A stretch of 64,000 bases of DNA from assembly GCA_964392345.1 (NCBI GenBank), contig CAYMPQ010000001.1, forward strand, positions 5,114-69,113. The letters are read 5' to 3'. A program made the translations under genes and the position numbers. The DNA comes from an uncultured Actinomycetota bacterium (GTDB lineage: Bacteria; Actinomycetota; Humimicrobiia; Humimicrobiales; Humimicrobiaceae). Under the pieces are notes generated by a model. The model was not told where the DNA came from and did no database searches. It saw nothing but the letters and a program-made list of their open reading frames with translations. Positions 6,196 to 25,981 of this stretch are shown in pieces (the stretch's first letter is position 1; every line of letters begins with the position of its first letter).

Positions 6196-6204
6196 GAGAA
6201 AGAC

Positions 6205-6429: not shown

Positions 6430-6537
6430 TTCAAAACCAGAATAATAAACACTTCGGTTTTAATAGCTAGTTGTGTAAATTATTTAAATATTTAAAAACT
6501 ACATAAATAGTACAAATTATTAAATAGGAGGGTTAAG

Positions 6538-7503: not shown

Positions 7504-7617
7504 ATTAAAGCCTGCTCCAAGTCCAGGTTTTATTTGATTTAAATTTGATAAGTTAAACAATTAAATATGGTTTATAAAATTTTAAAATTAATAAGTTTAA
7601 GGCAGGTGAGGTAATTT

Positions 7618-8817
7618 ATGGCAGAGAAAAAAGTAGGCTTTATAGGGATGGCTGCAGAAAAGAAAGCAGGCAAGATTCCAGAAATTGGGGTTGGGATGCT
7701 TGGCTACTCTTTTATGGGGAAGGCCCATTCTAATGGGTACAAGAAAATGCCTTACATCTTCTGGCCTCCTCCAGCAAAGCCAAAACTAATAAAAATGTGT
7801 GGAAGAACTGAAGAAAAGGTAGCCGAGGAAGCAAAGCGGTATAGATACCTCGAGTATTGTACAGATTGGCACGAGCTTATAAATGATGACAGGATTGATA
7901 TTTTTGTTAATGTTGGACCAAACAATATTCATGCTGAACCATGCATAGAAGCTGCAAAAGCTGGAAAAAACATTGTATGCGAAAAGCCTCTTGCCAGAAA
8001 TTCCGGGGAAGCAAAAGAAATGCTGGAAGCAGCAAAAAAAGCAGGAGTAAAACACCTGTGTAACTTCAATTATAGAATGGTTCCAGCTCTTGTACTTGCA
8101 AAAAATCTAATTTCGGATGGGAAGATTGGAAAAATATTTCACTTTAGAGCAAAGTACCTGCAGGAATGGATAGTAAATCCTAATTTTCCACTAATATGGA
8201 GGCTTGACAAAAAAGTTTGCGGCAGTGGAGCTATGGGTGATTTAGGGGCACATATAGTAGATCTTGCCAGATGGCTGTGCGGGGAGCCAGAAAGTGTTAT
8301 GGCTATGACCAAAACCTTTGTTACCGAAAGGCCTCTTCCGGATAATCCATCAAAGAAAGAAAAAGTAGAGGTTGATGATGCCTTTGTTTCTACTGTTGAA
8401 TTTAGAAATGGTGCAATTGGAGTATTGGAAGCCTCCAGGTTTTGCCCTGGCCGTAAAAATTACGAAACTATTGAAATTAATGGTGAAAAAGGAAGCATCT
8501 GGTGGGATCTTGAGAATATGAATAATCTTCATGTTTACTGGGCAGATGAAGAACCTGCTGATACAAGAGGATTTCACTGTATAAATGTTACTGAGTCATA
8601 TCACCCTTATTATGACAAGTGGTGGCCCCATGGCCATATAATTGGATGGGAGAATACATTCGTACATACTGCATACAATATGGTGAATGCAGTTGTAAAT
8701 GATGCCAAATTAGAACCTATGGTGGCAACTTTTGAAGATGGCTACAGGACAGCTGTAATCTGTGATGCAATGCTGAGGTCTGCAGAGTCAGGGAGAAAAG
8801 AGGAGATATCCTATTAA
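7618..8817 (+). CDS. Gfo/Idh/MocA-family NAD(P)-dependent oxidoreductase
   Basis: N-terminal Rossmann (IGVGMLGYSFMGKAHS), EKPLA motif, 399 aa; family typical of inositol/glycoside/levoglucosan 3-dehydrogenases. Confidence 0.8.
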   Translation: MAEKKVGFIGMAAEKKAGKIPEIGVGMLGYSFMGKAHSNGYKKMPYIFWPPPAKPKLIKMCGRTEEKVAEEAKRYRYLEYCTDWHELINDDRIDIFVNVGPNNIHAEPCIEAAKAGKNIVCEKPLARNSGEAKEMLEAAKKAGVKHLCNFNYRMVPALVLAKNLISDGKIGKIFHFRAKYLQEWIVNPNFPLIWRLDKKVCGSGAMGDLGAHIVDLARWLCGEPESVMAMTKTFVTERPLPDNPSKKEKVEVDDAFVSTVEFRNGAIGVLEASRFCPGRKNYETIEINGEKGSIWWDLENMNNLHVYWADEEPADTRGFHCINVTESYHPYYDKWWPHGHIIGWENTFVHTAYNMVNAVVNDAKLEPMVATFEDGYRTAVICDAMLRSAESGRKEEISY

Positions 8818-8879
8818 ATCCTATTAAAAGGTTAAGGCTTGAAGAGATAAATTGTTATATGTACTACTGGAGGGAATAA

Positions 8880-9731
8880 ATGAAATTTGGAATAAATACA
8901 CTATTGTTTACTGGTAACTATACAGACGAACATGTGAAAAGCTTGACTGGAAAATTTAAGGAATTAGGTTTTGATGGAGTGGAAATCGCACTTGGGAAAA
9001 AAGGTGATATTGATTACAAAAAAACACTGGGGGTATTTAAAGATAACGGGCTTGTATGCTCTTCAGTGTGCGGGCTTTTTGGAGAAGACAGGGATATCAG
9101 AGGACCAAAAAAAGAATATATTGAAGGCGGGCTTGCTTATATAAGAGATTGTCTTGAGGCATGTACAGATCTTGGCTGCAATGTTTTTGTGGGCCCTGTT
9201 TATTCTGCTGTTGGCCGTGCAGGCATGGTCCCGGAAAACGAGCGAAAGGTCCAATGGGATACAGTTGTTGAAAATTTAGGCAAAGCTTGTGAGTGGGCTG
9301 AAAAATATGGGGTATTTATAGCAATAGAGCCATTAAACAGATTTGAGACAGATTTTATCAATATCTGCAAGGACGCCGTAAAAATGGTCAAAGATGTTGG
9401 AAGCAAAATGTTAAAGGTTCATCTTGACACATTCCATATGAATATTGAGGAAAAGAATTCTGCAATGGCAGTTTTAGATGCCGGCGATTTGCTTTATTTA
9501 CTTCATGCGAGCGAAAATGACAGAGGTGCTGCAGGTACGGGGCAGGTTAACTGGAAAGCTATTGCAGATGCACTGCGAAGGATTAATTATGACAGATGGG
9601 TGGTAGTAGAATCATTTACACCTGAAAATAAAGTTATAGCAAAAGCTGCCTCAATTTGGAGACAAACCGAAAAAAGTGATTTTGTGCTTGCTGAAAAAAG
9701 TTTAAAGTTCCTGAAAGGGCTTTTAAGTTAG
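8880..9731 (+). CDS. Ketose 3-epimerase-like protein (D-tagatose/D-psicose/L-ribulose 3-epimerase family, xylose-isomerase-like TIM barrel)
   Basis: MKFGINTLLF start, IEPLNRFE and HLDTFHMNIEE motifs match the DTE/DPE consensus (IEVLNRFE, MLDTFHMNIEE) recalled from characterised enzymes; 283 aa. Confidence 0.65.
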   Translation: MKFGINTLLFTGNYTDEHVKSLTGKFKELGFDGVEIALGKKGDIDYKKTLGVFKDNGLVCSSVCGLFGEDRDIRGPKKEYIEGGLAYIRDCLEACTDLGCNVFVGPVYSAVGRAGMVPENERKVQWDTVVENLGKACEWAEKYGVFIAIEPLNRFETDFINICKDAVKMVKDVGSKMLKVHLDTFHMNIEEKNSAMAVLDAGDLLYLLHASENDRGAAGTGQVNWKAIADALRRINYDRWVVVESFTPENKVIAKAASIWRQTEKSDFVLAEKSLKFLKGLLS

Positions 9732-9772
9732 CTTAATATTTGTATTAAAAGAATAGATTGGAGATTTGGTAG

Positions 9773-10870
9773 ATGGCAGAAATAATTTTAAAACACATTT
9801 TTAAGAGATTTGACGACCTTGTTGCAATTAATGATTTAAGCCTGGACATCAAAGAGAGGGAATTCTTGGTCCTTCTTGGGCCATCAGGCTGTGGGAAAAC
9901 GACAACTCTTAGATGCATCTCTGGATTGGAAGTGCCGGATGAGGGGGAAATTTTAATAGGCGGAGAAGATGTTACAAATAAGAGAGCATCACAAAGGGAT
10001 ATAGCATTTGTTTTTCAGCTGTATGCCTTATATCCCCATCTGACAGTTTACGGTAATATAGCTTTTCCCTTGTTGACACAAAGAACTGATAAAAAAAAGA
10101 TAGAGCAGGAAGTAAATAGAGCTGCAGAAATTTTACAGATAAAACACATATTGAACAAAAAACCAAAAGAACTTTCAGGCGGGGATATGCAAAGAGTTGC
10201 TCTTGGAAGGGCAATTGTTAGAAGGCCAAAAGCTTTTTTACTTGATGAGCCGATAGGAACTCTGGATGCAAAATTTAGAGAAGAAATGCGAACCGAACTC
10301 AAGAGACTCCATGTTGACATAGGCGCTACTACAGTATATGTAACTCATGACCAGAGCGAAGCAATGGCTATGGGGGACATTGTTGCAATAATGAATCTTG
10401 GGGTTCTGCAACAAGCTGGGACACCTTATGAAATATACACCAATCCAAAAAATTTATTTGTAGCAAATTTTATTGGGACCCCTGGCATGAATTTTATAAA
10501 TTGTAAACCGGAAAGAGATTCAAATGGTAAGCTTGTGTTAAGGCTATCATTGATTGATGCCTGTATAGCAATATCTGATGAAATTCAAAAAATAATTTTA
10601 GATAGGAAAGAAGAAGAGCTAGTTTTAGGAATTAGGCCAGAAAATGTAGCGTTGAGCCTGAAGAAAGAGTGGAATTATATTAAATCAGAAGTTTTTGTTG
10701 TTGAAGCGACAGGCTCCTATAATATTATAGATGTAAGGTTAGGCAGCGATATTGTTAGAGTCCGAACACTGCCAACTGTGGCACCAAAAATTGGAGAAAC
10801 TGTGTATATCGGTATTGATATGGGAAGAATAAGCATCTTTAATAAAAAAGATGGGAATTCGATAATGTAA
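9773..10870 (+). CDS. ABC transporter ATP-binding protein, MalK/UgpC-like (NBD plus C-terminal regulatory TOBE-like domain)
   Basis: Walker A GPSGCGKTT, signature LSGGDMQRVALGRA, Walker B FLLDEP, H-loop; 365 aa. Confidence 0.9.
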   Translation: MAEIILKHIFKRFDDLVAINDLSLDIKEREFLVLLGPSGCGKTTTLRCISGLEVPDEGEILIGGEDVTNKRASQRDIAFVFQLYALYPHLTVYGNIAFPLLTQRTDKKKIEQEVNRAAEILQIKHILNKKPKELSGGDMQRVALGRAIVRRPKAFLLDEPIGTLDAKFREEMRTELKRLHVDIGATTVYVTHDQSEAMAMGDIVAIMNLGVLQQAGTPYEIYTNPKNLFVANFIGTPGMNFINCKPERDSNGKLVLRLSLIDACIAISDEIQKIILDRKEEELVLGIRPENVALSLKKEWNYIKSEVFVVEATGSYNIIDVRLGSDIVRVRTLPTVAPKIGETVYIGIDMGRISIFNKKDGNSIM

Positions 10871-10898
10871 TAATAAAATAAGTTGGGAGAATATGTAA

Positions 10899-11990
10899 AT
10901 GGCAGAGGTAAAATTAAATTCACTTACAAAGACTTTTGGTGATGTAGCTGCTGTGGATAATATGAATCTGGAAATTAAGGATAAAGAGTTTTTTGTTCTA
11001 CTCGGGCCAACAGGAGCCGGGAAAACTACGACATTAAGATTAATAGCTGGGTTAGAGAAAGCAGATAAGGGAGAAGTTTATATAGATAATATCTGTGTAA
11101 ATGGTCTTAGCCCAGCTGTAAGAGATGTTGCATTTGTGTTTCAGTATTACACTCTTTATCCCAATTATACTGTAAAACAAAATTTGGAATTTCCATTGAG
11201 GTCCAATCTTAGGAAAATGCCCCAGGCAGCAATTGATAAAAAGGTTTCCGAGGTTGCAGAGGTTTTGCACGTCGAGCATTTAATGAACAGGGAGACTGTA
11301 AATCTAAGCGGTGGTGAAATGCAGAGAGTGGCAATAGGCAGAGCCATAGTAAGAGCGCCAAAAGTTTTTCTGATGGATGAACCGCTGTCAAATTTGGATG
11401 CAAAACTAAGAGAAGAGATGAGAGCAGAGCTTGCAAGGCTTCACTTAGATATGGGATCTACTTTTTTTTATGTAACACATGACCAGATTGAAGCAATGAC
11501 AATGGGCGATAGGATAGCAGTACTTAATGAGGGCAAAATACTTCAAATTGGTACTCCTAATGAAATATATAATTCACCCAAAGATGTTTTTGTTGCTAAA
11601 TTTGTTGGAAGTCCTGCAATAAATTTATTTGATGCATCTATTGACGGAAATAATTTAATAATTGGCAAAGGGGCAATGATTTGCAGTGTTGTCGGGAAGC
11701 AATCAAGCTTGCTCAAGGGTTATAATAAGAAGAATGCAATTTTAGGAATAAGACCTGAAGATATTGAAATGTCGAGGGAAAAGAAAGGGGCCAATTCCAT
11801 TAAATGTTCTGTATATTTTAAACAGAGCATGGGCGTGGAAGATATTCTAAATTTAAAAATTGACAAAATTTTCTTTAAAGCGGTTGCTCCTGTAAAGTTT
11901 ATGGCTAAAGTTGGTGAAGTAGTTTATGCAAATATCAATATGGATAGAACCCACCTGTTTGATGCTGAAACAGAAACTTGCATAGTATAG
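10899..11990 (+). CDS. Second, distinct MalK/UgpC-like ABC ATP-binding protein
   Basis: Walker A GPTGAGKTT, signature LSGGEMQRVAIGRA, Walker B FLMDEP; 363 aa; clearly paralogous to but not identical with the preceding gene. Confidence 0.9.
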   Translation: MAEVKLNSLTKTFGDVAAVDNMNLEIKDKEFFVLLGPTGAGKTTTLRLIAGLEKADKGEVYIDNICVNGLSPAVRDVAFVFQYYTLYPNYTVKQNLEFPLRSNLRKMPQAAIDKKVSEVAEVLHVEHLMNRETVNLSGGEMQRVAIGRAIVRAPKVFLMDEPLSNLDAKLREEMRAELARLHLDMGSTFFYVTHDQIEAMTMGDRIAVLNEGKILQIGTPNEIYNSPKDVFVAKFVGSPAINLFDASIDGNNLIIGKGAMICSVVGKQSSLLKGYNKKNAILGIRPEDIEMSREKKGANSIKCSVYFKQSMGVEDILNLKIDKIFFKAVAPVKFMAKVGEVVYANINMDRTHLFDAETETCIV

Positions 11991-12079
11991 CTGGAAAGAA
12001 AAAATATTTTTAGAGGCTAAATTTTTATTATATAATCTATAAAATTTATTGACAGTTAGTCTGAAAGGATTTTCTGGTT

Positions 12080-13273
12080 ATGAAAAAAAGAGCTGCAGTC
12101 GAAAAAGCACTGGAGAGGAGCAATGGTATTTTAAATCTTAAGCCTGCGTGGGTAGCACGCGATTTTCTTCCTCCAGGCAGAAGGCTGGGGCTAAAAGAAA
12201 ATGAATACGAAGCAGGAAAGCGCGGCTGGATATCAGAGAGGTGGCTGGCATCCGTTACAAAGGCCGATAATGCAGTTGGCCCCCAGGATGAAGGACTTAG
12301 TTATTTAGCCATGGACGGCAACGAGAAAATAACTTTAAAGGAGGCAGTAGAAGTTGCAGGAGACCTGATAATGGGAAGACAGTATGCAAAGACCCATACC
12401 GGGTTAGGGAGGCTTGCAAAAATATATGATTTTGATGCCAGGATACCTTATCATATCCACCAGATGAAAAAAGATGCAGCTCTTGTTGGAAGAAATCCAA
12501 AAGATGAAGCTTATTATTTTCCCGAAGATGTAGATGCGGGCCCTCACCCTGAAACTTTTTTTGGCGTACATCCTTATATTGCAGAACAAAAAAAATATGA
12601 AATACTGCTTCCGTATCTGGAGGATTGGAACAGTGATTTAATATTAAAACATTCCAGAGCATACCTCAATGTTGCCGGAGAAGGTTTTTTCCTGCCTTCA
12701 GGAGCGCTCCATGGGCCGGGGACAGCACTAACAATAGAGCTTCAAGAAAATTCTGATGTTTTTGCTATGCTTCAGGCGCTAAATGCGGGAAAGATTATTT
12801 CAAAAGAGCTGCTGTTTAAAGATGTTCGCAGGGAAGACAGGGGAAAATATGGTGAAAGAGTGATCCTCGGTCAAATAGACTGGGAAACTAATGGGGATCC
12901 ATATTTCTATGAAAATCATCATCTTGAACCAAAACTGGTTGAAGAAACCAATCAGGAAGGCGGACAGGAGCACTGGATATATTATAATACAAGTAAGTTC
13001 AGTGGAAAGAAATTAACAGTAAAACCCGGGTGCACCTTTACCAGCACGGATAGAGGAGTTTACAACATACTTGTATGGAAAGGCAGCGGCAAATTTGACG
13101 GGCATGCAATAGAGGCCGATAATTTTAATTGTGATGAACTTTTAATTTCATTTGACAGAGCAGTAAAACCGCTAAATGTAGAAAATACTGGGACAGAAGA
13201 GTTGCAAATAATAAAGTTTTTTGGCCCCGACATAAATACCAATGTCCCAGTGATCAAACAGTATAGAAGTTGA
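12080..13273 (+). CDS. Cupin-fold protein resembling class I mannose-6-phosphate isomerase (PMI-like sugar isomerase)
   Basis: LAKIYDFDARIPYHIHQ and FFLPSGALHGPGTALTIELQENSD resemble the PMI type I motifs (LLDVKEDTSIKVHPDD, YYVPSGTLHA...LETQQNSD) from memory; 397 aa. Confidence 0.45.
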   Translation: MKKRAAVEKALERSNGILNLKPAWVARDFLPPGRRLGLKENEYEAGKRGWISERWLASVTKADNAVGPQDEGLSYLAMDGNEKITLKEAVEVAGDLIMGRQYAKTHTGLGRLAKIYDFDARIPYHIHQMKKDAALVGRNPKDEAYYFPEDVDAGPHPETFFGVHPYIAEQKKYEILLPYLEDWNSDLILKHSRAYLNVAGEGFFLPSGALHGPGTALTIELQENSDVFAMLQALNAGKIISKELLFKDVRREDRGKYGERVILGQIDWETNGDPYFYENHHLEPKLVEETNQEGGQEHWIYYNTSKFSGKKLTVKPGCTFTSTDRGVYNILVWKGSGKFDGHAIEADNFNCDELLISFDRAVKPLNVENTGTEELQIIKFFGPDINTNVPVIKQYRS

Positions 13274-13355
13274 TGGATCAGTTCTGGTACTATTTTGTTA
13301 AATTTTTTTCAGATAGTAATAGAAAAATTTTAAATTAAATTAATGGAGGTTTGTT

Positions 13356-14240
13356 ATGACGAAAAAAACATCAATTGGAGGATGGGCGTATATATGGGGC
13401 GGCTACGAGGAAAGCCCTATCCCTTTTAAAGATGTTGTTGAAAGGCTTTCTGTCCTTGGATTTGACGGTATTGAAATGGCTGCATTTCCTCCGCACCTGG
13501 AACCTAATACAAAAGAGAAGCGCAAAGAAATTAAGAAAATGCTGGATGATTATAAGTTAGGCGTGTCCGGCCTGGCTGCACCATTTCCATCACCGGCAAC
13601 ATCAAAGAAGAGTGATTATCTGGATGCGGTTAAAGCAAATCTTGAAATATGCAGCGACCTTGATATTCCCAAGCTCAGGGTTGACACTGTTGACCCGCCA
13701 ACTGGAATACCGGGCGGCATGGATTACGAGACCTGTTTTTCTAAAGTAGCCGAAGTCTGGAATGATGCTTCTGAAATATGTATGAAAAATAATGTGAAAC
13801 TTATATGGGAATTTGAGCCTGGTTTTTTATTTAACAAGCCAGGTGAAGTAGTCAGGATGGTTTACAAAGTGGAACACTCAAACTTTTCAATATTGTACGA
13901 TTCCTGTCATGCGCATATGTGTTCAGTAGTGGGTGCGCGGCAGTTAGGCAAAAAGGAGACGCTTCCAGGAGGCGTGGTTCAATTTACATATATGTTAACA
14001 GGGAAAATTGGACATATCCATTTAATTGATTCAGATGAGACTTTGCATGATGGTGATACAAGCACACATGCTCCTCTTGGAACAGGGGTACTGGATTTTG
14101 ACAAGATTATTCCAGCAATACTGGAAGCCGGATATACTGATGAGTGGTGGACAATTGACCTGTGCTTCTGGCCAAAAGCTTTGGATGTAACTGAAGACAA
14201 TAAAAAGTATCTTGACAAATTGATTAAAAAATTTGGATAA
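13356..14240 (+). CDS. Sugar phosphate isomerase/epimerase (xylose-isomerase-like TIM barrel)
   Basis: 294 aa; LGFDGIEMAA, WEFEPG, DSCHAHM and IHLIDSD pattern of AP_endonuc_2 TIM barrels. Confidence 0.7.
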   Translation: MTKKTSIGGWAYIWGGYEESPIPFKDVVERLSVLGFDGIEMAAFPPHLEPNTKEKRKEIKKMLDDYKLGVSGLAAPFPSPATSKKSDYLDAVKANLEICSDLDIPKLRVDTVDPPTGIPGGMDYETCFSKVAEVWNDASEICMKNNVKLIWEFEPGFLFNKPGEVVRMVYKVEHSNFSILYDSCHAHMCSVVGARQLGKKETLPGGVVQFTYMLTGKIGHIHLIDSDETLHDGDTSTHAPLGTGVLDFDKIIPAILEAGYTDEWWTIDLCFWPKALDVTEDNKKYLDKLIKKFG

Positions 14241-14308: not shown

Positions 14309-15391
14309 ATGAAAGTGGCTGAGAAAATGAAAGCCCAGGTTTTTTATGAAGCTGAAAAGATGAAGCTTGAAGAGATACCAATTCCAGAGATTACAGATAT
14401 AGATATGCTGGTAAGAGTAAAAAATGTTGGAATATGCGGATCTGATATATCCTACTACTATGGCCTTAGTCCTCTTGGCACAGCTACAGGAAAAGGACCG
14501 CTGGTTTTAGGTCATGAATTTACCGGGGAAGTTGCAAAAGTTGGGAAAGTACCAGCAGGTATGGGACTTTTTAAAGAAGGGGACAGGGTTGTAGTTAATC
14601 CAGTTCAGCACTGCAATGCTTGTTATGCGTGTGCTTCTGGCCAAACTCATCTATGTGAAAATTCAAGTGTCCCGGGAGTTACCGTTAACGGTGGTTTTGC
14701 AGAATACTGTGTATCAAAATATACAGGTTTGTTTAAGCTTCCCGATGGTATGAGTTATGCTGCAGGTGCCTTTACAGAACCATTTGCCTGCGCTGTAAAT
14801 GGCATGAAGAAGTTAGAGATCGAGCCTGGCCAGTTTGTAGCAGTGTTTGGGCCAGGTGCAATTGGACTCATGATGGTACAGCTGGCAAAATCAATTGGTG
14901 CAGGAAAGGTTGCATTAATTGGAACCAGGGATTACCGTCTGGAAATGGGCAAAGAAAATGGAGCAGATTATATATTTAATACCAGAAATAAAGACTCAAA
15001 ATACTATGCAGCTGATCTTAAAAAAGCTATATCAGACTTAACAAATGGAAAATTAGCTGACAGGGCAATAGTTCCGACAAGCTCAAACGATGCTTTTGAG
15101 CAGGCTATTGATGTAACTGGAAATTGTGCAATTTTAGTACACTTTGGCTTGCCCAATGAAGGTGATGTCATACATGTCCCTGCACTTAGTTTTCACACTA
15201 TGGATAAACAAATAAGAGCAGCCTGGCTGGCGCCGCTGTCCTGGCCCACCACAATTCGATGTATGGCAGAAGGGCTTGTGAATGTTGAGGCATTGCTAAC
15301 GCACAGATATCCTTTAGAGGATACAGAAAAGGCAATAATAAATCTAAAAAACAGGGTTGGAAATCCAATGAAAGTTCAAATTGTGCTGTAA
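14309..15391 (+). CDS. Zn-dependent medium-chain alcohol/polyol dehydrogenase (sorbitol/xylitol/L-iditol dehydrogenase-like)
   Basis: GICGSD and GHEFTGEV zinc motifs, structural-Zn Cys cluster (CNACYACASGQTHLC), Rossmann GPGAIGL; 360 aa. Confidence 0.85.
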   Translation: MKVAEKMKAQVFYEAEKMKLEEIPIPEITDIDMLVRVKNVGICGSDISYYYGLSPLGTATGKGPLVLGHEFTGEVAKVGKVPAGMGLFKEGDRVVVNPVQHCNACYACASGQTHLCENSSVPGVTVNGGFAEYCVSKYTGLFKLPDGMSYAAGAFTEPFACAVNGMKKLEIEPGQFVAVFGPGAIGLMMVQLAKSIGAGKVALIGTRDYRLEMGKENGADYIFNTRNKDSKYYAADLKKAISDLTNGKLADRAIVPTSSNDAFEQAIDVTGNCAILVHFGLPNEGDVIHVPALSFHTMDKQIRAAWLAPLSWPTTIRCMAEGLVNVEALLTHRYPLEDTEKAIINLKNRVGNPMKVQIVL

Positions 15392-15451
15392 TACCTGTTT
15401 TGTTAAAAATTAATAAGTTTTGTTGATGTAAATATAATAGTATAAATTTAT

Positions 15452-16579
15452 TTGGTGGAGGGAGCAGACATGGATGAAATTATCAACACAAAATATCAGA
15501 AGATACAAAGAGATAAGGGTGAGCTCATAGAGCACATGAGCACTTTCAACCTAAAGGTAATGCCCTCTGTGGGAATATGGTATTTTACGCCTGGTGGCGG
15601 AAGATTTCATGACTCATTTGTCTCGCCAAAAGATATACCAGAAAAAATAGAAATGGCTGCTGAAATGGCAAAGTATGGTGTAAAAGCAATAGAGGCCCAT
15701 TATCCTTCTGAGGTAAACGAAGAAAATTACCACCTGTATCAAAAATTGGAGAAAGAAACAGGCATAAAGCTTATTAGCTGCTACCCGGCAATTTTTTTCC
15801 CAAAAGAATATGAATTTGGTTCACTGTCAAATCCATATAAAAAATATAGGGACAAGGCAGTAGAAACTCTTATAGGCTGTTTAAAGTTTGCAAAGGATAA
15901 TGGCCTGCATCATGCAGGCATATGGCCAGGGAGCGATGGCTACCTTTACTCACTTGGAACTGTTTTTTATAAGATGTGGGATATGTTTGAAGACGCAGTA
16001 GCTTATGCAATGGATGAAGTCCCGGGAGTAGCAGTTGCAATCGAACCAAAACCATATGAACCTGCACCAAACAATATATACAGGACAACAGCAGACGGAT
16101 TGTTAGCGTGCCGCGACATAGAGTTAAGACTTAAATCAGAACAAAACAGGAATCTTCTTTCCGAAGGGCGTGCTTTGCTGGGCATGCAGCCTGAGATAGG
16201 GCACATAAGAATGGGGTATGAAGATACGCCATATGCATTTTGCAGGGCAATGAGACAGGGCAGGTTGTTTCATACCCATTGGAATAGTCAGCCTCTGGGA
16301 AACTATGACCAGGATTTAAATGTGGGAGTTGTTGAATGGCAGCAGGCCGAGGCTGCTATGTATGTTTTAAAGATGCATGGCTACAGAGAATATTATGGAA
16401 TTGATATTAATCCTGAGAGGATGCCTGCTGAAAAGGCTGTTGAGATAAACTGTCTTGCATTAAATATTATAAATGACAAAATTAACAACCTTCCCCATGA
16501 AGAAATAATAGAATCATATTTTGACCCTGAAAACCACAGGGGAGATATAGAGCTGATACTTGCAAAGGCAATGAAATAG
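15452..16579 (+). CDS. Divergent xylose-isomerase-family protein (class I XylA-like), with an altered second-metal-site motif
   Basis: AIEPKPYEP, QPEIGHIRM and LFHTHWNSQPLGNYDQDLNVG parallel the class I XylA motifs (AIEPKPNEP, NPEVGHEQM, LFHIDLNGQ..KYDQDLRFG) recalled from Streptomyces XI; 375 aa. Confidence 0.6.
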   Translation: MVEGADMDEIINTKYQKIQRDKGELIEHMSTFNLKVMPSVGIWYFTPGGGRFHDSFVSPKDIPEKIEMAAEMAKYGVKAIEAHYPSEVNEENYHLYQKLEKETGIKLISCYPAIFFPKEYEFGSLSNPYKKYRDKAVETLIGCLKFAKDNGLHHAGIWPGSDGYLYSLGTVFYKMWDMFEDAVAYAMDEVPGVAVAIEPKPYEPAPNNIYRTTADGLLACRDIELRLKSEQNRNLLSEGRALLGMQPEIGHIRMGYEDTPYAFCRAMRQGRLFHTHWNSQPLGNYDQDLNVGVVEWQQAEAAMYVLKMHGYREYYGIDINPERMPAEKAVEINCLALNIINDKINNLPHEEIIESYFDPENHRGDIELILAKAMK

Positions 16580-16621
16580 CGTATATTTAATTGTTTTAAT
16601 AAGCTTGATTGGAGGTAGCGA

Positions 16622-17740
16622 ATGTCTGGTAACAAAATAAAGGTTGCAGTAATTGGCCTTGGCTTTGGTGCAGACTTTATCCCAATTTATCAAAACCATC
16701 CTGATTGTGAGTTGTATGCAATATGCAGAAGAAATAAGGAAAAGTTAAATGAATGCGGTGATAAATATGGCATTGAGCGAAGGTTCACTGACTACAGGGA
16801 TATTTTAGAAATAGATGAGGTTGATGCAATCCATATCGTAACACCAGTAAAAAGTCATGCCGAGTTAGCTATCAATTCGCTTAATGCAGGTAAACATGTT
16901 GCCTGCACGGTTCCAATGGCTACCACAGCTGAGGAATGCATGGAGATAGTTAAGGCAAGAAGAAAAGCAGGAAAAGTTTATATGATGATGGAAACTTCTG
17001 TTTATACTAAAGAATTTCTATACGTTAAAGATCTTGTTGATAGCGGCAAATTAGGGAAAATTCAGTTTTTGCGCGGCTCGCATCAGCAGGATATGGAAGA
17101 TTGGGGCGGGGCATGGCCCGGCTTTCCTCCCATGCATTATGCTACGCATGCTGTCAGCCCCTGTGCTGCTCTTGCCAGAGCTGATGTAGAATCTGTATTT
17201 TGCTTTGGATCAGGGAAAATACGCGAAGAATATATAAAAAAATATAACTCTCCTTTTGCGATTGAAACAACTCTTATAAAGTTTAAGAATTCCGATCTGG
17301 CAGCTGAGGTTACAAGGTCTCTTTATGATACTGTCCGCCAGTATATTGAAAGTTTTGATGTTTATGGAGGCAAACTCTCATTTGAATGGAACAGGTTAAG
17401 CGATGAAGACCCTACTCTGTTTACAGGAAAAGAAGATGCTGTAAGGGTAGAAGTACCTGATACAGGTAATATGCTGCCGAAGGAAATTGCCAGGTTCACA
17501 AGAGCTGAAGATGTGTTGGATGATGAAGAAAAAAAACATCTTTCTTTTGTACAGGGATCTGGACATGGGGGTTCTCACCCACATATGGTACATGAGTTTA
17601 TAAGGGCAATTGTTGAGAAAAGAGACTCAGCAATAGATGTTGAGACTGCAGCAAACTGGACATGTACTGGTATATGCGCCCACGAGTCAGCTATGAGCGG
17701 AGGGGAAAGAGTATATTTGCCAGATTTTTACAATATTTAA
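16622..17740 (+). CDS. Gfo/Idh/MocA-family oxidoreductase (second copy)
   Basis: N-terminal Rossmann KVAVIGLGFGADFIP, 372 aa, family-typical layout. Confidence 0.8.
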   Translation: MSGNKIKVAVIGLGFGADFIPIYQNHPDCELYAICRRNKEKLNECGDKYGIERRFTDYRDILEIDEVDAIHIVTPVKSHAELAINSLNAGKHVACTVPMATTAEECMEIVKARRKAGKVYMMMETSVYTKEFLYVKDLVDSGKLGKIQFLRGSHQQDMEDWGGAWPGFPPMHYATHAVSPCAALARADVESVFCFGSGKIREEYIKKYNSPFAIETTLIKFKNSDLAAEVTRSLYDTVRQYIESFDVYGGKLSFEWNRLSDEDPTLFTGKEDAVRVEVPDTGNMLPKEIARFTRAEDVLDDEEKKHLSFVQGSGHGGSHPHMVHEFIRAIVEKRDSAIDVETAANWTCTGICAHESAMSGGERVYLPDFYNI

Positions 17741-17775: not shown

Positions 17776-17814
17776 CTATCCCAAATGACTTGTACTGTAA
17801 GTTATTCGGGATAG
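17776..17814 (+). promoter_or_regulatory. Hairpin (ctatccc ... gggatag, 7-bp perfect arms) enclosing an imperfect dyad acttgtactgtaagt, between the oxidoreductase and FGGY kinase genes
   Basis: Inverted repeats read directly; could be a weak terminator or an operator for one of the locus regulators. Confidence 0.25.
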
Positions 17815-17840
17815 TATTATTTTATGGAGTTTTTTTAAAT

Positions 17841-19358
17841 ATGAGTTTGCTTGGGATAGACATAGGAACAACAGGATGCAAGGCAGTTATATTTAACAGA
17901 TATGGGGAAATACTGTCAGCAGAATACAGAGAGCACCCGCTGATCCATCCAAGAGAAGGGTGGGTGGAAATTGACCCCGGCCTTATCTGGAACAATGTAA
18001 AAGATCTTGTCAGAGATGCAAGCCAGAAGATAAAAAAAGACAAGATTAAAGCATTTAGCGTATCCTGCCAGGGAGAGACTACGGTTCCGGTAAGCAGGGA
18101 TGGAAGTGCTCTATACAATGCAATAGTTACATTTGACAGCAGAACAGAGAGCCAGTACAGGTTCTGGAAGAGAAGACTGGGAGAAAAAAAGATATTTAAA
18201 ATTACCGGAATGCCACTTCACCCAATGTATTCTGTAAATAAAATAATGTGGATAAGGGAAAACCTAAAAGATGTTTACAAGAGAGCATATAAGTTTTTAT
18301 GTTTTGAAGATTACATATTTTCAAAGTTTGGTCTCACCCCAACCATAGATTATACCCTTGCTGCAAGGACAATGGCATTTGATATTAAAAGCAAGAATTG
18401 GTCTGAAGAAATACTTAAAGAAGCAAAAATAAACGTAGATATGCTCTCAGAAGTTAAACCATCAGCAGAAATTGTTGGAGAGATAAATTCAAAAATTTTA
18501 TGTGATATTGGAATTGATGGAAACGTGTTTGGGGTAACAGGCGGCCACGATCAGGCATGCGGAGCATTTGGGGCCGGTATTACTGAAGAGGGCACTGCAA
18601 TGAATGCAACAGGTACATCAGATGTGATAACCCCGATTTTAAATAAAATTTACACAACTGATAGCATGCTGGGCAACAATTACCCCTGCTATCCATATGT
18701 GGTTAAGGATAAATATATGACAATAACATTTAATCTAACAGGCGGTCTTCTTCTCAGGTGGTACCGGGATAATTTTTGTTATGAAGAAAGGGCAGCTGCA
18801 GAAAGAGAAGGCAGGGATGCTTATGATGTGATAACCAGCAAGATGCACTCCAGTCCTGCTAACATATTTATACTTCCCCATTTTGTAGGAAGCGGGACTC
18901 CTTATCTTGATTCAAAATCCAGGGGTGCTGTTTTGGGACTTGACTTGGAAACAAACAAAGCAAAAATAGCAAGAGCAATACTGGAAAGCAATACTTATGA
19001 TTTAAGGCTAAACTTAGAAAAATTGGAAGAGTCAGGAATTACTGTAGACAAGATAATTGCAATAGGCGGGGGAGCAAAATCACACGAATGGTTAAAAATA
19101 AAATCAGATATATTAAATAGAAAGATACTGACTCTAAAGAATCCGGAGGCCGCAAGTCTTGGAGCAGCAATGCTTGCCGGGCTAGCGGTTGGAGAATATA
19201 GCTCTTACAAAAATGCAGTGGAAAATACTGTAAAAGAAGATAAAATGTATTGTCCTGATAGTAACCACAGCAAGCAATATGACATAAGATACTCAATATA
19301 TAAGGACATATACAGCAAAAATAAAAATTTACTGCATAGAATTAGTAAATTGGATTAG
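17841..19358 (+). CDS. FGGY-family carbohydrate kinase (xylulokinase/ribulokinase-like). Probable start MSLLGIDIGTT; the track ORF begins 51 nt earlier at 17790.
   Basis: FGGY N-terminal GIDIGTTGCKAV motif, C-terminal IGGGAKS; RBS ggag 8 nt before the 17841 ATG. Confidence 0.8.
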   Translation: MSLLGIDIGTTGCKAVIFNRYGEILSAEYREHPLIHPREGWVEIDPGLIWNNVKDLVRDASQKIKKDKIKAFSVSCQGETTVPVSRDGSALYNAIVTFDSRTESQYRFWKRRLGEKKIFKITGMPLHPMYSVNKIMWIRENLKDVYKRAYKFLCFEDYIFSKFGLTPTIDYTLAARTMAFDIKSKNWSEEILKEAKINVDMLSEVKPSAEIVGEINSKILCDIGIDGNVFGVTGGHDQACGAFGAGITEEGTAMNATGTSDVITPILNKIYTTDSMLGNNYPCYPYVVKDKYMTITFNLTGGLLLRWYRDNFCYEERAAAEREGRDAYDVITSKMHSSPANIFILPHFVGSGTPYLDSKSRGAVLGLDLETNKAKIARAILESNTYDLRLNLEKLEESGITVDKIIAIGGGAKSHEWLKIKSDILNRKILTLKNPEAASLGAAMLAGLAVGEYSSYKNAVENTVKEDKMYCPDSNHSKQYDIRYSIYKDIYSKNKNLLHRISKLD

Positions 19359-19487: not shown

Positions 19488-21011
19488 ATGAAATATATAC
19501 TGAGTCTTGACATTGGAACAACTTCAACAAGAGCAATAATAATTGATGAGGATGGAGCCCTTATATCATCAAGCACCAAAGATTACGAGCTTTACACGCC
19601 TAAGCCGGGATGGGCGGAACAGGACCCAATTGATTGGTGGGGTGCATCTGTGTTTACCATAAAAGAAGCAATTAAAAGTTCAAATATTTCTCCAAAGGAT
19701 ATCTCTGCCATAGGGCTCTCGGGGCAGATGCACGGGAGTGTCTTTTTAGACAGAAATGGAGAAGTAATTAGGCCTGCAATACTCTGGTGTGATCAGAGGA
19801 CAAATGATCAATGCAATAAGATTTACAAAATATTTGGCAGGCAAAATTTTATAAAATTATCATACAACAAAGCTCTCCCGGGGTTTACAGCACCCAAGAT
19901 ATTGTGGCTGGAAGAGAAAGAACCTCAAAACTACAAAAAGGTATCAAAAATACTCCTTCCAAAGGATTATATAAGGTACAGACTATCAGGAAAGTATGTA
20001 ACTGAAGTGTCAGATGCATCTGGAACAATACTTATGGACATTGCCAAAAGGTGCTGGTCACATGAAATATTGGATGGACTGGATATAGACAGAGATTTGC
20101 TTCCAGATGTATACGAGTCAACAGAAATAACATCATATGTAAGTAAATCGGCTTCATCAGCAACCGGTCTTACAGAAGGCACGCCCATTGCCGGAGGAGC
20201 AAGTGACAATGCAGCAGGAGCAGTTGGCTCAGGTATTATAAGGGAAGGTCTCCTGTCGGATTCTATAGGAACAAGTGGTGTCGTGTTTGCCTACAGCAAA
20301 AAACCATTATATGACAGTCAGGGAAGGGTACACTCATTCTGTCATGCTGTGCCGGGCAGGTGGCACCTTACAGGAGTAACACTGTCTGCAGCAGGGTCCC
20401 TAAAATGGTATTATGAAAATTTTGGCCCAAGCAGGAAAATTGAAGACATGTATCCGAAAATAAAAGGCTACAACCTGCTAAACAAAGAAGCGGAAAGCAT
20501 TCCTGTTGGCTCAGACGGACTTATATTTTTACCATATCTGTCAGGCGAGAGAACTCCTCATGCTGATCCTTATGCCAGAGGTGTATTTTTTGGACTGTCT
20601 TATTTGCACACCCAGAATCATTTTGTACGCTCAGTTATGGAAGGTGTGGCATTTAGCCAGCTTGATTGTCTTTCTCTTATGAGAAAGCTAAATATTGTAT
20701 CAGACAAAATAGTCCTTTTTGGCGGTGGAGCAAAAAGCAAAGTATGGAAACAGATTATTTCAGATGTAATGAATGCAAAAATTGTAACACTGAATGTCGA
20801 AGAAGGGCCGGCTTACGGGGCAGCTCTTATTGCCGGGGTTGGATGCGGAATATACAGCAGCGTAGAAGAAGCAGCCGACAAGACAATAAAGGAAGCAAGC
20901 CAGATTGATCCCATAAGGGAAAATGTAAAAAAATATGAAAAGTTATATGGAATATACGGGTCTCTTTACGCAGACTTAAAAGATGATTTTGAGAAGTTAG
21001 GCCACATTTAA
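19488..21011 (+). CDS. xylB: Xylulokinase-like FGGY carbohydrate kinase
   Basis: LSLDIGTTSTRAIII, GWAEQDP...WW and FGGGAKS are typical of XylB; 507 aa. The symbol is tentative (family-level similarity). Confidence 0.7.
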   Translation: MKYILSLDIGTTSTRAIIIDEDGALISSSTKDYELYTPKPGWAEQDPIDWWGASVFTIKEAIKSSNISPKDISAIGLSGQMHGSVFLDRNGEVIRPAILWCDQRTNDQCNKIYKIFGRQNFIKLSYNKALPGFTAPKILWLEEKEPQNYKKVSKILLPKDYIRYRLSGKYVTEVSDASGTILMDIAKRCWSHEILDGLDIDRDLLPDVYESTEITSYVSKSASSATGLTEGTPIAGGASDNAAGAVGSGIIREGLLSDSIGTSGVVFAYSKKPLYDSQGRVHSFCHAVPGRWHLTGVTLSAAGSLKWYYENFGPSRKIEDMYPKIKGYNLLNKEAESIPVGSDGLIFLPYLSGERTPHADPYARGVFFGLSYLHTQNHFVRSVMEGVAFSQLDCLSLMRKLNIVSDKIVLFGGGAKSKVWKQIISDVMNAKIVTLNVEEGPAYGAALIAGVGCGIYSSVEEAADKTIKEASQIDPIRENVKKYEKLYGIYGSLYADLKDDFEKLGHI

Positions 21012-21149: not shown

Positions 21150-22094
21150 ATGGCCTGGACTGAAAAAAAGAAACTTATATCTAAAATATCAAGACTCTAC
21201 TATATCAGCAACTTAACCCAGCAAGAAATTGCAAATAAACTAAATTTATCAAGAACAAAAGTCTCGAGATATTTGGATATGGCGAGAAAAGAAAGAATAG
21301 TTGAGGTAAAAATTAATTCGCCCGATGAAAGCTATGAAGAGTTAGAGTGTGCAGTAGAAAAAAAATATAAGATAAAAGAATGTGCTATTGTCCCTTCTTG
21401 CGAAAGCAAAGAAGAAACTTTAAAAGAGATTGCTAAAAAGTTAAGCAATATATTTGATAGGATATTAAAGGATGGGGATTATTTAGGAATTGGCTGGGGG
21501 ACTTCATTAAAAGGCATAGCAGATTATCTTGACGTCAGCAGAAATATAAGCATAAAAGTAATTCCTATAATTGGGGGGCTTGGGAAAGTTGGCACAGGAG
21601 TTCATACAAATTCAGTTGCAAGGGCTGTAGCTGATAAAATTGGAGGGGTTAGCTATATGATTAATGCTCCTGCAGTTTTGGATAGCAAAAAAGCAAGAGA
21701 AGTCATTGAAAATGAGGGCAGCACCAGAGAAATAATAAATATGGCAGATCAAATTAATACAGCCATGGTAGGAATGGGCGATATCAGTTCTGAATCTACA
21801 CTGGTTAAGACTGGAAATTTTAGTGCAGAAGAATTTAATTACTTGAGCAGTTTGGGAGTAGTCGGAGATGTAAATTTAATTTTTATAAATGAAGATGGAG
21901 AACACATAAAAAGCAAGACAGACGATAGAATTATCAGAATTTCAGCAAGTAAAATTAAGAAGATTAAAAATAAAATAGGAGTTGGCTTTGGGGACAAAAA
22001 AGTAAAAGTTATAGAAGGAGCTCTAAAGGGCAAATTCATAAATATTTTATTAACTGATGAAGATACAGCAAAAAGTATAACCAGAGGGGATTAA
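21150..22094 (+). CDS. SorC/DeoR-family (CggR-like) sugar-phosphate-binding transcriptional regulator
   Basis: N-terminal HTH (ISNLTQQEIANKLNLSRTKVSRYLDMARKE), 314 aa, C-terminal sugar-binding domain with the GIGWGTS motif typical of SorC/CggR. Confidence 0.8.
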   Translation: MAWTEKKKLISKISRLYYISNLTQQEIANKLNLSRTKVSRYLDMARKERIVEVKINSPDESYEELECAVEKKYKIKECAIVPSCESKEETLKEIAKKLSNIFDRILKDGDYLGIGWGTSLKGIADYLDVSRNISIKVIPIIGGLGKVGTGVHTNSVARAVADKIGGVSYMINAPAVLDSKKAREVIENEGSTREIINMADQINTAMVGMGDISSESTLVKTGNFSAEEFNYLSSLGVVGDVNLIFINEDGEHIKSKTDDRIIRISASKIKKIKNKIGVGFGDKKVKVIEGALKGKFINILLTDEDTAKSITRGD

Positions 22095-23123
22095 ATGGGG
22101 AAGATTTTAAATAAAAAAAGCAAATACATAAATATTGATGGCTACAGGATAGAAGATAAATTCTCCAACTTGGAAGATGCTGTAAAGATAGAAATGCTAA
22201 AAAAAATGTATCAGATAAGGCATTTTGAGAATGAAACCGAGCAATTCATTATAAGGGGTGCAATCCACGGTACATGCCATCTTTATACTGGTGAGGAGGC
22301 AACTGCTGTAGGTGCAAATTATGCTCTGGATAGCGGTGATTATATTACTTCAACCCATAGGGGTCATGGCCATTGCATCGCAAAAGGGGCAGACATGAAT
22401 ATTATGATGGCAGAGCTATTGGGCAAGAAGACAGGATATTGTAAGGGTAAAGGTGGGTCAATGCACATAGCTGATGTTGGCTCAGGAAACCTTGGCGCAA
22501 ATGGAATAGTTGGGGGAAGCATTGGCATTGCTACAGGAGCAGCACTTACCTGTAAGATGAAGAAGAATGGGAAGATTGTAGTATGTTTCTTCGGAGATGG
22601 TGCAGCCAATCGTGGAATATTTCATAGCTCCATTAATATGGCTTCTATATGGGGGCTTCCTATAGTTTACCTTTGTGAAAATAATGTCTATGGAATGTCA
22701 ACACCGGTAAAGGAAGCATTTAATATAGAAAAGATATCAGATAGAAAATTTGCTTACGGAATTGACGGGCTTACAATTGATGGCAATAATCTGGTTGAGG
22801 TATTTAATACAGTTTCACATTTTGTAAGAGAGTGCAGGGCTGGAAGAGGTCCAGTTTTGATTGAATGCCTAACTTACAGGTGGAAGGGCCATTCTAAAAG
22901 TGATGCTCAGGTTTATAGAACAAAGGAAGAAGTAAAGCAGTGGATTGACAAAGACCCTATCAAAAGATATAAGAAAGTTCTAATTGACCGAAAGATACTA
23001 ACTGAAAAAGAAGATAGAGATTTAGAAAAAGAAGTTGTAGGCCAATTAGAGAAAGCAACTAAATTTGCCAAGGAAAGCCCCTTTCCGGAACCTTCAGAAG
23101 TTGAAGAGGATGTTTATGCATGA
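22095..23123 (+). CDS. TPP-dependent 2-oxoacid (acetoin/pyruvate-type) dehydrogenase E1 component, alpha subunit
   Basis: TPP motif GDGAANRG...N, HxxGHG motifs; 342 aa; start codon directly abuts the regulator stop (TAAATG). Confidence 0.85.
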   Translation: MGKILNKKSKYINIDGYRIEDKFSNLEDAVKIEMLKKMYQIRHFENETEQFIIRGAIHGTCHLYTGEEATAVGANYALDSGDYITSTHRGHGHCIAKGADMNIMMAELLGKKTGYCKGKGGSMHIADVGSGNLGANGIVGGSIGIATGAALTCKMKKNGKIVVCFFGDGAANRGIFHSSINMASIWGLPIVYLCENNVYGMSTPVKEAFNIEKISDRKFAYGIDGLTIDGNNLVEVFNTVSHFVRECRAGRGPVLIECLTYRWKGHSKSDAQVYRTKEEVKQWIDKDPIKRYKKVLIDRKILTEKEDRDLEKEVVGQLEKATKFAKESPFPEPSEVEEDVYA

Positions 23124-23171
23124 AAAATAGTATTATTACAATTTATAATTTGTGGAGGAATTTTTACTAGG

Positions 23172-24164
23172 ATGAGAGAATTAACATACCTTGAAGCAAT
23201 AAGAGAAGCAATGCAGCAGAAGATGAGGGAAGACAGTAGTGTATATCTTATAGGAGAAGACATAGCAGAATATGGGGGAGCATTTGGTGTGACTGTAGGG
23301 ATGCTTTCTGAATTTGGGAAAGAAAGGGTAAGAAATACTCCAATTTCTGAAGCAGCCATAATAGGAGTTGCCACTGGAAGTGCTGTTACAGGGATGAGGC
23401 CAATAGCTGAGATAATGTTTTCAGATTTTGTAACTATAGCTATGGATCAAATTGCAAACCAGGCTGCAAAAATAAGGTATATGTTTGGAGGAAAAGCTAA
23501 AGTGCCCCTGGTAATCAGAACAGCAGGAGGTGGTGGGACAGGTGCGGCTGGCCAGCATTCACAGAGTCTTGAAGCACTGGTTGCTCATATTCCAGGTTTA
23601 AAGGTTGTTATGCCTTCTTGTCCATATGATGCAAAAGGACTGTTAGTTGCATCAATTAATGACAATAATCCGGTTGTATTTATAGAGCATAAAATGCTTT
23701 ATAAAAATAAAAAGTGTATCCAACATGTACCTGAGGAAATGTATGAAATTCCACTGGGCAGCGCAGATACAAAAAGGCAGGGAAGCGATATCAGCATAGT
23801 TGCTACTTCTTTCATGGTTCAAAAGTCAATTGAGGCAGCACAAGTACTGGCAGAAGAAGAAAACATAGAATGTGAAATAATAGATTTGAGAACATTGCGG
23901 CCGCTTGATATAGACACTGTACTGGATTCAGTTAAAAAAACCGGGAGGCTCCTGTGCGTAGAAGAAGCATGCAGTTTCGGAGGTTTTATGGGAGAGGTAG
24001 CAGCAGAGGTGGTAGAAAAAGGGTTTGATTACCTCGATGCTCCTATATGCAGAGTGGCGGGAAGAAACTGTCCGGTTCCATATAGTCTTGTTTTAGAACA
24101 GGAAATGATCCCAGGTGTTGACAGAATTAAAAAAGGCGTACTTGATATTCTGCATAAGGTTTAA
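23172..24164 (+). CDS. 2-oxoacid dehydrogenase E1 component, beta subunit (transketolase-like)
   Basis: E1-beta transketolase-like pyrimidine-binding domain ([17 protein letters not shown], dimer core); 330 aa. Confidence 0.85.
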
Positions 24165-24308
24165 TTGATGTTGCAGCGCATATTATACAGATTGGGCACA
24201 ATTTTAATTAATGCGCAATTTTAATTGATAACTCTGTTAATTAATTATAATATAAGTCCACGAGTTTTATTTTTTGGTTTTAAGTTTATTTGTTAGGAGG
24301 ATAAAGTA

Positions 24309-25511: not shown

Positions 25512-25570
25512 AGTTGAGCTATAGCCATTGCTTTTTACGGGTGTTTTATAGTTAAATTAATAAAGATTGT

Positions 25571-25981
25571 TTGTTCATTAACATTAATTGTAAAATGAAA
25601 GACGAAGAATCAAAAATAATACTGTATTGCATAAACTGCGATGAAGAAGTAGCCCACTCTGTGTATTATACCGGCAGTTATTTGCGAAGCGTAAAATGTG
25701 ACAGGTGCGGCAAGAAAATAGAAATAGACAGACGCCACCTCAGGGCTGTTTTTGCTGAAGATTTTATAGACAGAATTTTAACAAAGCCTCACAGGATGAC
25801 TGAAGATGCGAAAAAAGCACTTGCAATTCTTGTGCCATTTTTTCCAAAGAGATTGATTAAAGAGCCTCTTGCAGTAATTAAAGATATTTGTGAAATTTTA
25901 AAAAGAGATAATGGAAGAAAGCAAGAGCGCAGAGGTAAAAAAATACATAAGGCAAAAAGTAAAAAAGAAAACAGCAGCTAA
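25571..25981 (+). CDS. Hypothetical zinc-ribbon protein with a strongly basic C-terminal tail (likely true start MKDEESK at ~25595)
   Basis: CxxC(x17)CxxC (CINCDEE...CDRCGKK) followed by K/R-rich tail RKQERRGKKIHKAKSKKENSS; no family recognised. Confidence 0.4.
   Translation: MFININCKMKDEESKIILYCINCDEEVAHSVYYTGSYLRSVKCDRCGKKIEIDRRHLRAVFAEDFIDRILTKPHRMTEDAKKALAILVPFFPKRLIKEPLAVIKDICEILKRDNGRKQERRGKKIHKAKSKKENSS

Follow-up and report, generated by a model that had tools for sequence, protein, structure and literature searches.

The stretch of DNA analyzed here (the window, 64 kb long, from an uncultured Actinomycetota bacterium) carries at positions 15470-16579 a gene, hereafter the target, for a sugar isomerase of the xylose isomerase (XI) type. 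Judging from sequence comparisons, it probably represents a divergent and widespread XI-type lineage that still serves as xylose isomerase. These comparisons place the target in a clade of its own, strongly conserved and distinct from both class I and class II XylA. The protein is very probably an active two-metal hydride-shift aldose-ketose isomerase of the type of XI and L-rhamnose isomerase (L-RhI). Its most likely physiological reaction would be D-xylose <-> D-xylulose, because the gene is paired with that of xylulokinase in two phyla, in either order, and we give this reading a probability of roughly 0.55. We computed the fold of the protein, the conservation of its ligands, the separation of its clade, and the gene neighborhoods of the family.

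Gene product

In the ORF listing, 15452-16579 on the + strand is an open reading frame (ORF). A preliminary description of this DNA had the reading frame right but began it with the TTG at 15452, where we prefer the ATG at 15470. The TTG (15452-15454) sits just 5' of a GGAGGG Shine-Dalgarno, and we take ATG 15470 as the true start because of this GGAGGG at 15457-15462 and because homologs and public gene calls have lengths of 368-371 amino acids (aa). An identical 369-aa product is called in public assemblies.

15470..16579 (stop codon included), + strand: coding sequence of the two-metal XI-type sugar isomerase, 369 aa (ORF, Shine-Dalgarno, public calls, PF01261)
15457..15462, + strand: Shine-Dalgarno GGAGGG, upstream of ATG 15470

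Pfam recognises in the target only the superfamily domain PF01261, and the match (44.1 bits over residues 64-323, for a gathering threshold of 31.1) makes it a member of this superfamily. The AlphaFold2 (AF2) model of the protein has a confidence (pLDDT) of 88 and a predicted TM score (pTM) of 0.90.

Metal sites and catalytic residues

In XI, metal 1 (M1) is held by Glu181, Glu217, Asp245, and Asp287, and metal 2 (M2) by Glu217, His220, Asp255, and Asp257 (PMC8070043). The register between these residues and the target was taken from four independent alignments: phmmer against the PDB, MAFFT on the target with its 120 closest homologs and the XI of Streptomyces rubiginosus, the family profile against the PDB, and hhalign (99% probability). 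The S. rubiginosus reference sequence has W16, F26, H54, D57, F94, W137, E181, K183, E217, H220, D245, D255, D257, D287, and K289 at their textbook numbers. The motifs quoted in the preliminary description (AIEPKPYEP, PEIGH, NYDQDL, and LFHTHWNSQ) are all present in the ORF at 15452-16579, and phmmer, MAFFT, the profile-PDB alignment, and hhalign all set LFHTHWNSQ opposite class I LFHIDLN[GD]Q, as had been proposed.

15692..15706, + strand: EAHYP, in which H77 corresponds to XI His54, the ring-opening base (MAFFT, hhalign; invariant in the family)
16037..16063, + strand: AIEPKPYEP, in which E192 corresponds to XI E181 (M1 ligand) and K194 to XI K183 (MAFFT, profile-PDB, hhalign)
16190..16204, + strand: PEIGH, in which E242 corresponds to XI E217 (bridging M1 and M2) and H245 to XI H220 (M2) (three alignments)
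16265..16291, + strand: LFHTHWNSQ, with H270 (codon 16277-16279) in place of the XI M1 ligand Asp245 (four alignments)
16301..16318, + strand: NYDQDL, in which D280 and D282 correspond to XI D255 and D257 (M2 ligands) (MAFFT, profile-PDB, hhalign)
16397..16414, + strand: GIDINP, in which D312 corresponds to XI D287 (M1 ligand) and N314 lies opposite Streptomyces K289 (MAFFT, profile-PDB)

Both catalytic residues of XI, His54 and Lys183, have equivalents in the target. H77 pairs with H54 in MAFFT and hhalign, phmmer being 3 residues out of register, and K194 is found opposite Lys183 in all alignments. More generally, the target and its 120 closest homologs keep in the MAFFT alignment the equivalents of W16, F26, H54, F94, W137, E181, K183, E217, H220, D255, D257, and D287, and the sole exceptions among the XI catalytic and substrate-contact residues that we checked are D245, which is His, and K289, which is Asn. 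We considered the latter (N314) as a second diagnostic difference and dropped it, since the XI of Thermus has His at the K289 position.

The M2 site of XI is complete in the target (E242, H245, D280, D282), and the equivalents of its two aspartates D255 and D257 are kept in, respectively, 119/121 and 121/121 homologs (MAFFT). Residues 275-286, where the AF2 model is of low confidence, are the invariant loop PLGNYDQDLNVG that bears both of these M2 Asp ligands; this loop may be ordered only when metal is bound. At M1, E192, E242, and D312 are kept and the fourth carboxylate of XI is missing, its place being taken by H270, a histidine present in 121/121 close homologs (MAFFT).

The preliminary description had seen in LFHTHWNSQ the loss of two M2 aspartates to His and Trp, and from this a chemistry or metal need different from those of XylA. 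The local difference from LFHIDLNGQ is genuine, but the XI motif holds a single Asp, D245, which ligates M1 (PMC8070043). The M2 aspartates D255 and D257 lie in KYDQDL and are conserved elsewhere in the target, as D280 and D282 of NYDQDL, in all four alignments, an outcome that the preliminary description itself had listed as one that would refute it. The Trp (W271) stands for Leu246, which is not a ligand. What survives of the claim is the change of one metal ligand, D245 to H270, at M1 and with M2 intact. The agreement of the four alignments and the published ligand lists rule out a remodeling of M2, and a reading built upon it has almost no probability left. LFHTHWNSQ is also not a chance occurrence, because several of its residues and of their neighbors are invariant across 34 sequences from several phyla (H270, W271, N272, Q274, P275, G277, N278, Y279, Q281, D282, and L283 in this alignment).

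The histidine has a precedent. In the L-RhI of Pseudomonas stutzeri (PsL-RhI), M1 is held by E219, D254, H281, and D327, with His281 the counterpart of XI Asp245 and Asp254 that of XI Glu217; this M1 binds O2/O3, not O2/O4, and is able to hold Zn2+ (PMC11485043). We searched exhaustively 1.84 billion cluster representatives and obtained 65 full-length relatives. In their alignment, to which the target and S. rubiginosus XI were added and are included in the counts, the L-RhI-type metal signature E-D-H-D / H-D-D occurs in 41 of 65, the target-type signature E-E-H-D / H-D-D in 11 (among them every intact relative with 29-45% identity), and the XI-type signature E-E-D-D / H-D-D in 2. The target clade does not have the full E-D-H-D signature of L-RhI at M1, its bridging residue being Glu (E242), not Asp. 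Because it has the bridging Glu of XI and, like L-RhI, a His for Asp245, the Glu-Glu-His-Asp M1 of the target is in sequence terms a hybrid between that of XI (Glu-Glu-Asp-Asp) and that of L-RhI (Glu-Asp-His-Asp). As the alignments have it, the M1 His is probably ancestral to the target's branch and not a local remodeling; the one-off change envisaged earlier does not fit with a residue that is the state of L-RhI, is found in 121/121 close homologs, and is in the majority among distant relatives. Given the coordination chemistry of His in place of a carboxylate, and the Zn2+ held at M1 of L-RhI, such a site would probably favor Mn2+, Co2+, Fe2+, or Zn2+ over Mg2+.

Family placement and distribution

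The target falls far below the equivalog cutoffs of the known families. It scores 63.5 bits against the class I XylA model TIGR02631 (NCBIfam; cutoff 447), 13.2 and 18 bits in partial matches to the class II models TIGR02630 and PRK05474 (cutoffs 533 and 459), and 48 and 16 bits against the L-RhI equivalogs TIGR02635 (Gram-positive type) and TIGR02629 (cutoffs 531 and 647), in the N-terminal half only. With an identity to known XIs of 22-25%, the protein is not a canonical XylA, as the preliminary description had it, and the resemblance to class I XylA that it noted is confirmed by the fold and the motifs. The target does belong to the subgroup of two-metal aldose-ketose isomerases (XI, L-RhI, and the structure 3ktc), defined by more than 300 aligned residues, both metal sites, and a structure nearer to XI and L-RhI than to one-metal epimerases.

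The clade is tight (>55% identity among members) and counts 2,903 proteins in a collection clustered at 90%, with identities still above 60% in Actinomycetota, Dictyoglomus, Brocadiia, Firmicutes, and Bathyarchaeia. Two sequence patterns, one of them HWNSQP[LM]G, jointly returned 586 genome stretches, of which 566 were confirmed as relatives, and the clade is present in 566 of ~185,000 species genomes. Only 31 of the 1.84 billion cluster representatives searched fall below 1e-30, and the clade is therefore isolated in sequence space. The automatic names of its members are inconsistent ('xylose isomerase', 'TIM barrel protein', 'sugar phosphate isomerase/epimerase'). We found no description of a 'class III' XI in the literature searched, and the papers on Dictyoglomus turgidum and Thermogutta contain genome-based predictions only.

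Genomic context

The neighborhoods of the family were surveyed in 80 retrieved loci, all from uncultured metagenome-assembled genomes (MAGs). In at least 15 Actinomycetota-type loci (context A) the homolog is followed directly by a 507-509-aa FGGY kinase, often with a ROK regulator and an ATP-binding cassette (ABC) transporter on the opposite strand. In one of these loci (L005) the kinase is XylB (544 bits vs a cutoff of 380), the transporter corresponds to the ChvE/GguA/GguB multiple-monosaccharide equivalogs, all above cutoff, and no other catabolic enzyme is encoded. The layout is that of a xylose operon in which the target homolog stands in the place of xylA, and since an isomerase and a xylulokinase are the only catabolic genes of the locus, the simplest substrate is xylose. 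Two loci of Phycisphaerae (L085 and L090), with homologs ~60% identical to the target, have a XylB equivalog directly upstream (525 and 537 bits), and in L085 the xylB stop overlaps the start of the homolog (ATGA). The kinase-isomerase order is here the reverse of that in Actinomycetota. The linkage of the target family to the XylB equivalog is thus found in two phyla, as well as in the operon of the window.

The target itself lies in a long string of genes on the same strand. This string encodes LacI and ROK regulators together with a CUT1-type ABC transporter, then a PF01261 protein, a Gfo/Idh/MocA oxidoreductase, a PF01261 protein similar to ketose 3-epimerases, a pair of MalK ATPases, the 397-aa protein, and one more PF01261 protein. 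After these come the Zn-dependent dehydrogenase, the target, another Gfo/Idh/MocA, an FGGY kinase that scores below the XylB cutoff, and a true xylulokinase. No intrinsic terminator was found between the genes of this string. We call the window-type arrangement context B; more than 20 MAG loci share it.

2797-14240, + strand: upstream cluster of genes for a substrate-binding protein, two permeases, a PF01261 protein (321 aa), a Gfo/Idh/MocA oxidoreductase, a ketose-3-epimerase-like PF01261 protein (283 aa), two tandem MalK, the 397-aa protein, and a PF01261 protein (294 aa)
14309..15391, + strand: Zn-dependent polyol/alcohol dehydrogenase, upstream partner, syntenic with the target in context-B loci
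16622..17740, + strand: Gfo/Idh/MocA oxidoreductase (GFO_372), downstream partner in the context-B synteny
17790..19358, + strand: FGGY kinase (FGGY_522), XylB-like below the equivalog cutoff (316 vs 380 bits)
19488..21011, + strand: bona fide xylulokinase XylB (580 vs 380 bits)

The XylB at 19488..21011 is the likely consumer of the product of the isomerase. We searched for a canonical xylA elsewhere in the window and found none in the 64 kb. In a neighbor-joining (NJ) tree the context-A copies form one clade nested among the context-B copies, and the copy of the window groups with this xyl-operon clade; separate subfamilies for the xyl-operon and window-type contexts were not seen.

Synteny of the upstream cluster (2797-14240) extends to more than 20 Actinomycetota-type MAG loci. 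The Gfo/Idh/MocA of this cluster reaches 390 bits with the model for levoglucosan dehydrogenase, whose cutoff is 650, and the cluster looks like a 3-keto-sugar (oxidation-elimination-reduction) pathway for some sugar or glycoside.

Several further observations concern the partners of the target. The two FGGY kinases of the window stand in tandem, the 316-bit kinase at 17790-19358 being a putative sugar kinase of XylB-like type, and in other context-B loci a third FGGY type (279-292 bits) takes the place of the window-type pair or stands beside it. The 397-aa protein (12080-13273, + strand) has no Pfam, NCBIfam, or PDB match, is 70-77% conserved, and is always encoded between the MalK genes and the gene of the 294-aa PF01261 protein in syntenic loci. 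The latter protein (APE_294; 13356-14240, + strand) has no NCBIfam match and no solved relative at E <= 1e-3. Among the operon partners, solved relatives were lacking for APE_294 and the 397-aa protein, and GFO_372 had generic N-terminal matches only. In locus L064, the closest to the window among the named genomes (homolog 87% identical), an extra XI-superfamily gene that is not in the window (3635-4660, + strand; ~340 aa, ~26% identical to the target) lies between FGGY_522 and xylB.

Outside these contexts the surroundings are diverse. Across ~35 loci of distant phyla, the only recurring metabolic neighbors are PfkB (4) and FGGY (3) kinases; a Pfam census gave no conserved partner beyond these few, and the PfkB kinases are mostly generic, one being a true ribokinase. 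In Bathyarchaeia (L003, L004, and L069) we observed a third conserved context, in which the homolog comes after genes for an HpcH/HpaI-type aldolase and for a 343-aa protein that lacks annotation, and has a convergent Gfo/Idh/MocA oxidoreductase downstream. At 14402-17110 (+ strand) of locus L009, genes for a PfkB kinase and for an aldolase of class II fructose-bisphosphate type precede a second paralog of the target (69% identical, cut by the locus end), which suggests that some family members serve a ketohexose route.

Physiological reaction

We infer the activity, substrate, and metal preference of the target from analogy and context. By analogy with XI, H77 would assist ring opening; the open-chain sugar would then chelate metal 1, held by E192, E242, H270, and D312, with its carbonyl polarised by K194; and metal 2 (E242, H245, D280, D282) would activate a water molecule and promote the hydride shift from C2 to C1. 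The xylulokinase whose gene lies 2.9 kb downstream, within this gene string, would then phosphorylate the xylulose so formed. The His at M1 is compatible with isomerase activity because it is the native state in L-RhI (PMC11485043). The preliminary description had also concluded that the protein would not be a xylose isomerase in function, a conclusion that is not supported, since the gene is paired in two phyla with that of a bona fide xylulokinase and takes the place of xylA in a compact xyl-type operon of Actinomycetota.

Several points weigh against D-xylose. The gene is flanked, in the window as in more than 20 syntenic loci, by those of a Zn-dependent dehydrogenase and a Gfo/Idh/MocA oxidoreductase, with the 3-keto-sugar-type cluster upstream, and the substrate in context B could be another aldose or ketose. 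The kinase that follows the gene in the main context-B clade is XylB-like and below the cutoff (279-292 bits), and the NJ tree carries no support values. The gene mostly stands alone in distant phyla, where the Pfam census of nearest neighbors gave no conserved partner, and FGGY kinases lie within 6 kb in just 3/23 of the loci. The literature searched contained no experimentally characterised member of the clade. Finally, the AF2 model has low confidence (pLDDT < 50) solely at residues 275-286 (window 16292-16327), the D280/D282 loop.

These points leave some room, clearly less than for D-xylose, for an active two-metal isomerase whose substrate at this locus is another pentose, a hexose, or a branched sugar tied to the neighboring dehydrogenases and the 3-keto-sugar-type cluster. 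Candidates would include D-lyxose, a polyol-linked pair of ketopentose and aldopentose, and D-apiose, as for the Pectobacterium D-apiose isomerase ApsI (as cited in PMC13001218). The recurrence in more than 20 loci of the tight operon of Zn-dependent dehydrogenase, target, GFO_372, and FGGY_522 points in this direction, as do the upstream genes, which resemble levoglucosan dehydrogenase (at 390 bits, below the cutoff) and ketose 3-epimerases, and the PfkB kinase and class II aldolase genes that adjoin the second paralog in L009. An M1 His as in L-RhI, where M1 sits on O2/O3 (PMC11485043), would permit a different binding mode, and 3ktc, the structure nearest to the target, belongs to an uncharacterised 'putative sugar isomerase'. 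However, the context-A and Phycisphaerae loci hold just the isomerase and a true XylB, the window copy clusters with the context-A copies in the NJ tree, and the window operon has a true XylB as well. A route for apiose is further disfavored by the lack of transketolase-type genes: the E1 alpha and beta genes at 22095-24164, accompanied by E2, E3, and lipoate ligase, are those of a 2-oxoacid/acetoin dehydrogenase complex rather than of a transketolase.

It is more doubtful still that the target is no isomerase at all, but an XI-like TIM barrel acting on a 3-keto sugar as an epimerase, a dehydratase/hydratase, or a beta-eliminase. The locus has three other PF01261 proteins and two Gfo/Idh/MocA, as is typical of pathways of the 3-keto-glycoside or levoglucosan type, and GFO_372 is weakly similar to DgpA-type 3-oxidoreductases. 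Such a role would, however, have to account for two complete metal sites with the XI-specific equivalents of His54 and Lys183, and for minimal operons with xylulokinase alone. We thus retain the interconversion of D-xylose and D-xylulose as the favored reaction.

Remainder of the window

The region 21150-28179, which appears to be a module separate from the target operon, encodes a SorC-type regulator followed by E1 alpha, E1 beta, E2, and E3 of the 2-oxoacid/acetoin dehydrogenase complex, with a lipoate-protein ligase at 25986-26714 on the opposite strand to the dehydrogenase genes. A V/A-type ATPase operon with A, B, C/AC39, and I subunits lies at 45116-53321 (- strand). The window also encodes Rho, RF1, PrmC, SHMT, an LCP-family protein, and an EPSP_synthase-family protein (PF00275) at 53868-55181, and at 59912-61027 (- strand) there is a 371-aa ORF with no Pfam match. 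Its GC content is 31-40%, and the GC skew changes sign near 41-42 kb.

Significance

Industry uses xylose isomerases to make high-fructose syrup and to let engineered yeast ferment xylose, and there is an active search for new sequence classes that differ in metal needs, in inhibitor profile, or in optimum pH and temperature. The main value of these results lies in enzyme discovery and in the annotation of uncultured anaerobes. If the clade has XI activity, classes I and II would be joined by a third lineage; the M1 of this lineage would bridge XI and L-RhI, with a bearing on the evolution of O2/O4 versus O2/O3 binding and of metal selectivity, and the pathway reconstructions of many uncultured anaerobes would be corrected. 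We tentatively suggest, rating it somewhat below an even chance, that the clade is a third and so far unrecognised class of physiological D-xylose isomerase, with a Glu-Glu-His-Asp M1 and dependent on a transition metal, not Mg2+, and that it is the main or only XI of many uncultured anaerobes. The lineages meant by this tentative proposal are Humimicrobiia-type Actinomycetota, Phycisphaerae, Dictyoglomota, and Bathyarchaeia. If the substrate is another sugar, the target would mark a step not yet described, in a sugar pathway that is widespread and rich in oxidoreductases.

Comparison with known isomerases

The L-RhI of P. stutzeri (PDB 2hcv/2i56) shares with the target its M1 histidine, His281 matching H270. 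It differs by the Asp (D254) at the bridging position, where the target and XI have Glu, and by its length (~430 aa vs 369 aa). The sequence similarity is marginal and partial (profile E = 3e-5, residues 112-199 only), and no rhamnulokinase or aldolase context was seen.

The structure 3ktc (YP_050048.1, a 'putative sugar isomerase' of Pectobacterium atrosepticum from structural genomics, whose entry assigns no function) has 22-23% identity and is ~40 aa shorter than the target. Unlike the target, it uses Asp as the bridging residue (DFGH), has Asp instead of His opposite D245 (FGMDVN), and lacks a His54 equivalent. 3ktc may have a link to ApsI.

Class II XIs (E. coli, Thermotoga, Piromyces) have ~437 aa with an N-terminal extension of ~50 aa, against 369 aa for the target, and the match spans only target residues ~88-225 (E = 1e-5 to 1e-7).

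Class I XylA (Streptomyces, Thermus, and Arthrobacter; TIGR02631) provides the best sequence matches of the target (E = 1e-16 for the XI of Thermus; hhalign probability 99%). Both have the (beta/alpha)8 barrel with a C-terminal helical tail, and their lengths are similar (~388 aa in class I vs 369). The C-terminal domain is shorter in the target. The identity is just 22-25%, the M1 Asp245 is His in the target, K289 is Asn (His in Thermus XI), and no equivalent of D57 could be aligned. Yet the equivalents of E181, K183, E217, H220, D255, D257, D287, H54, W16, F26, F94, and W137 are common to both, and in some genomes it is the target homolog that takes the position of xylA beside xylB.

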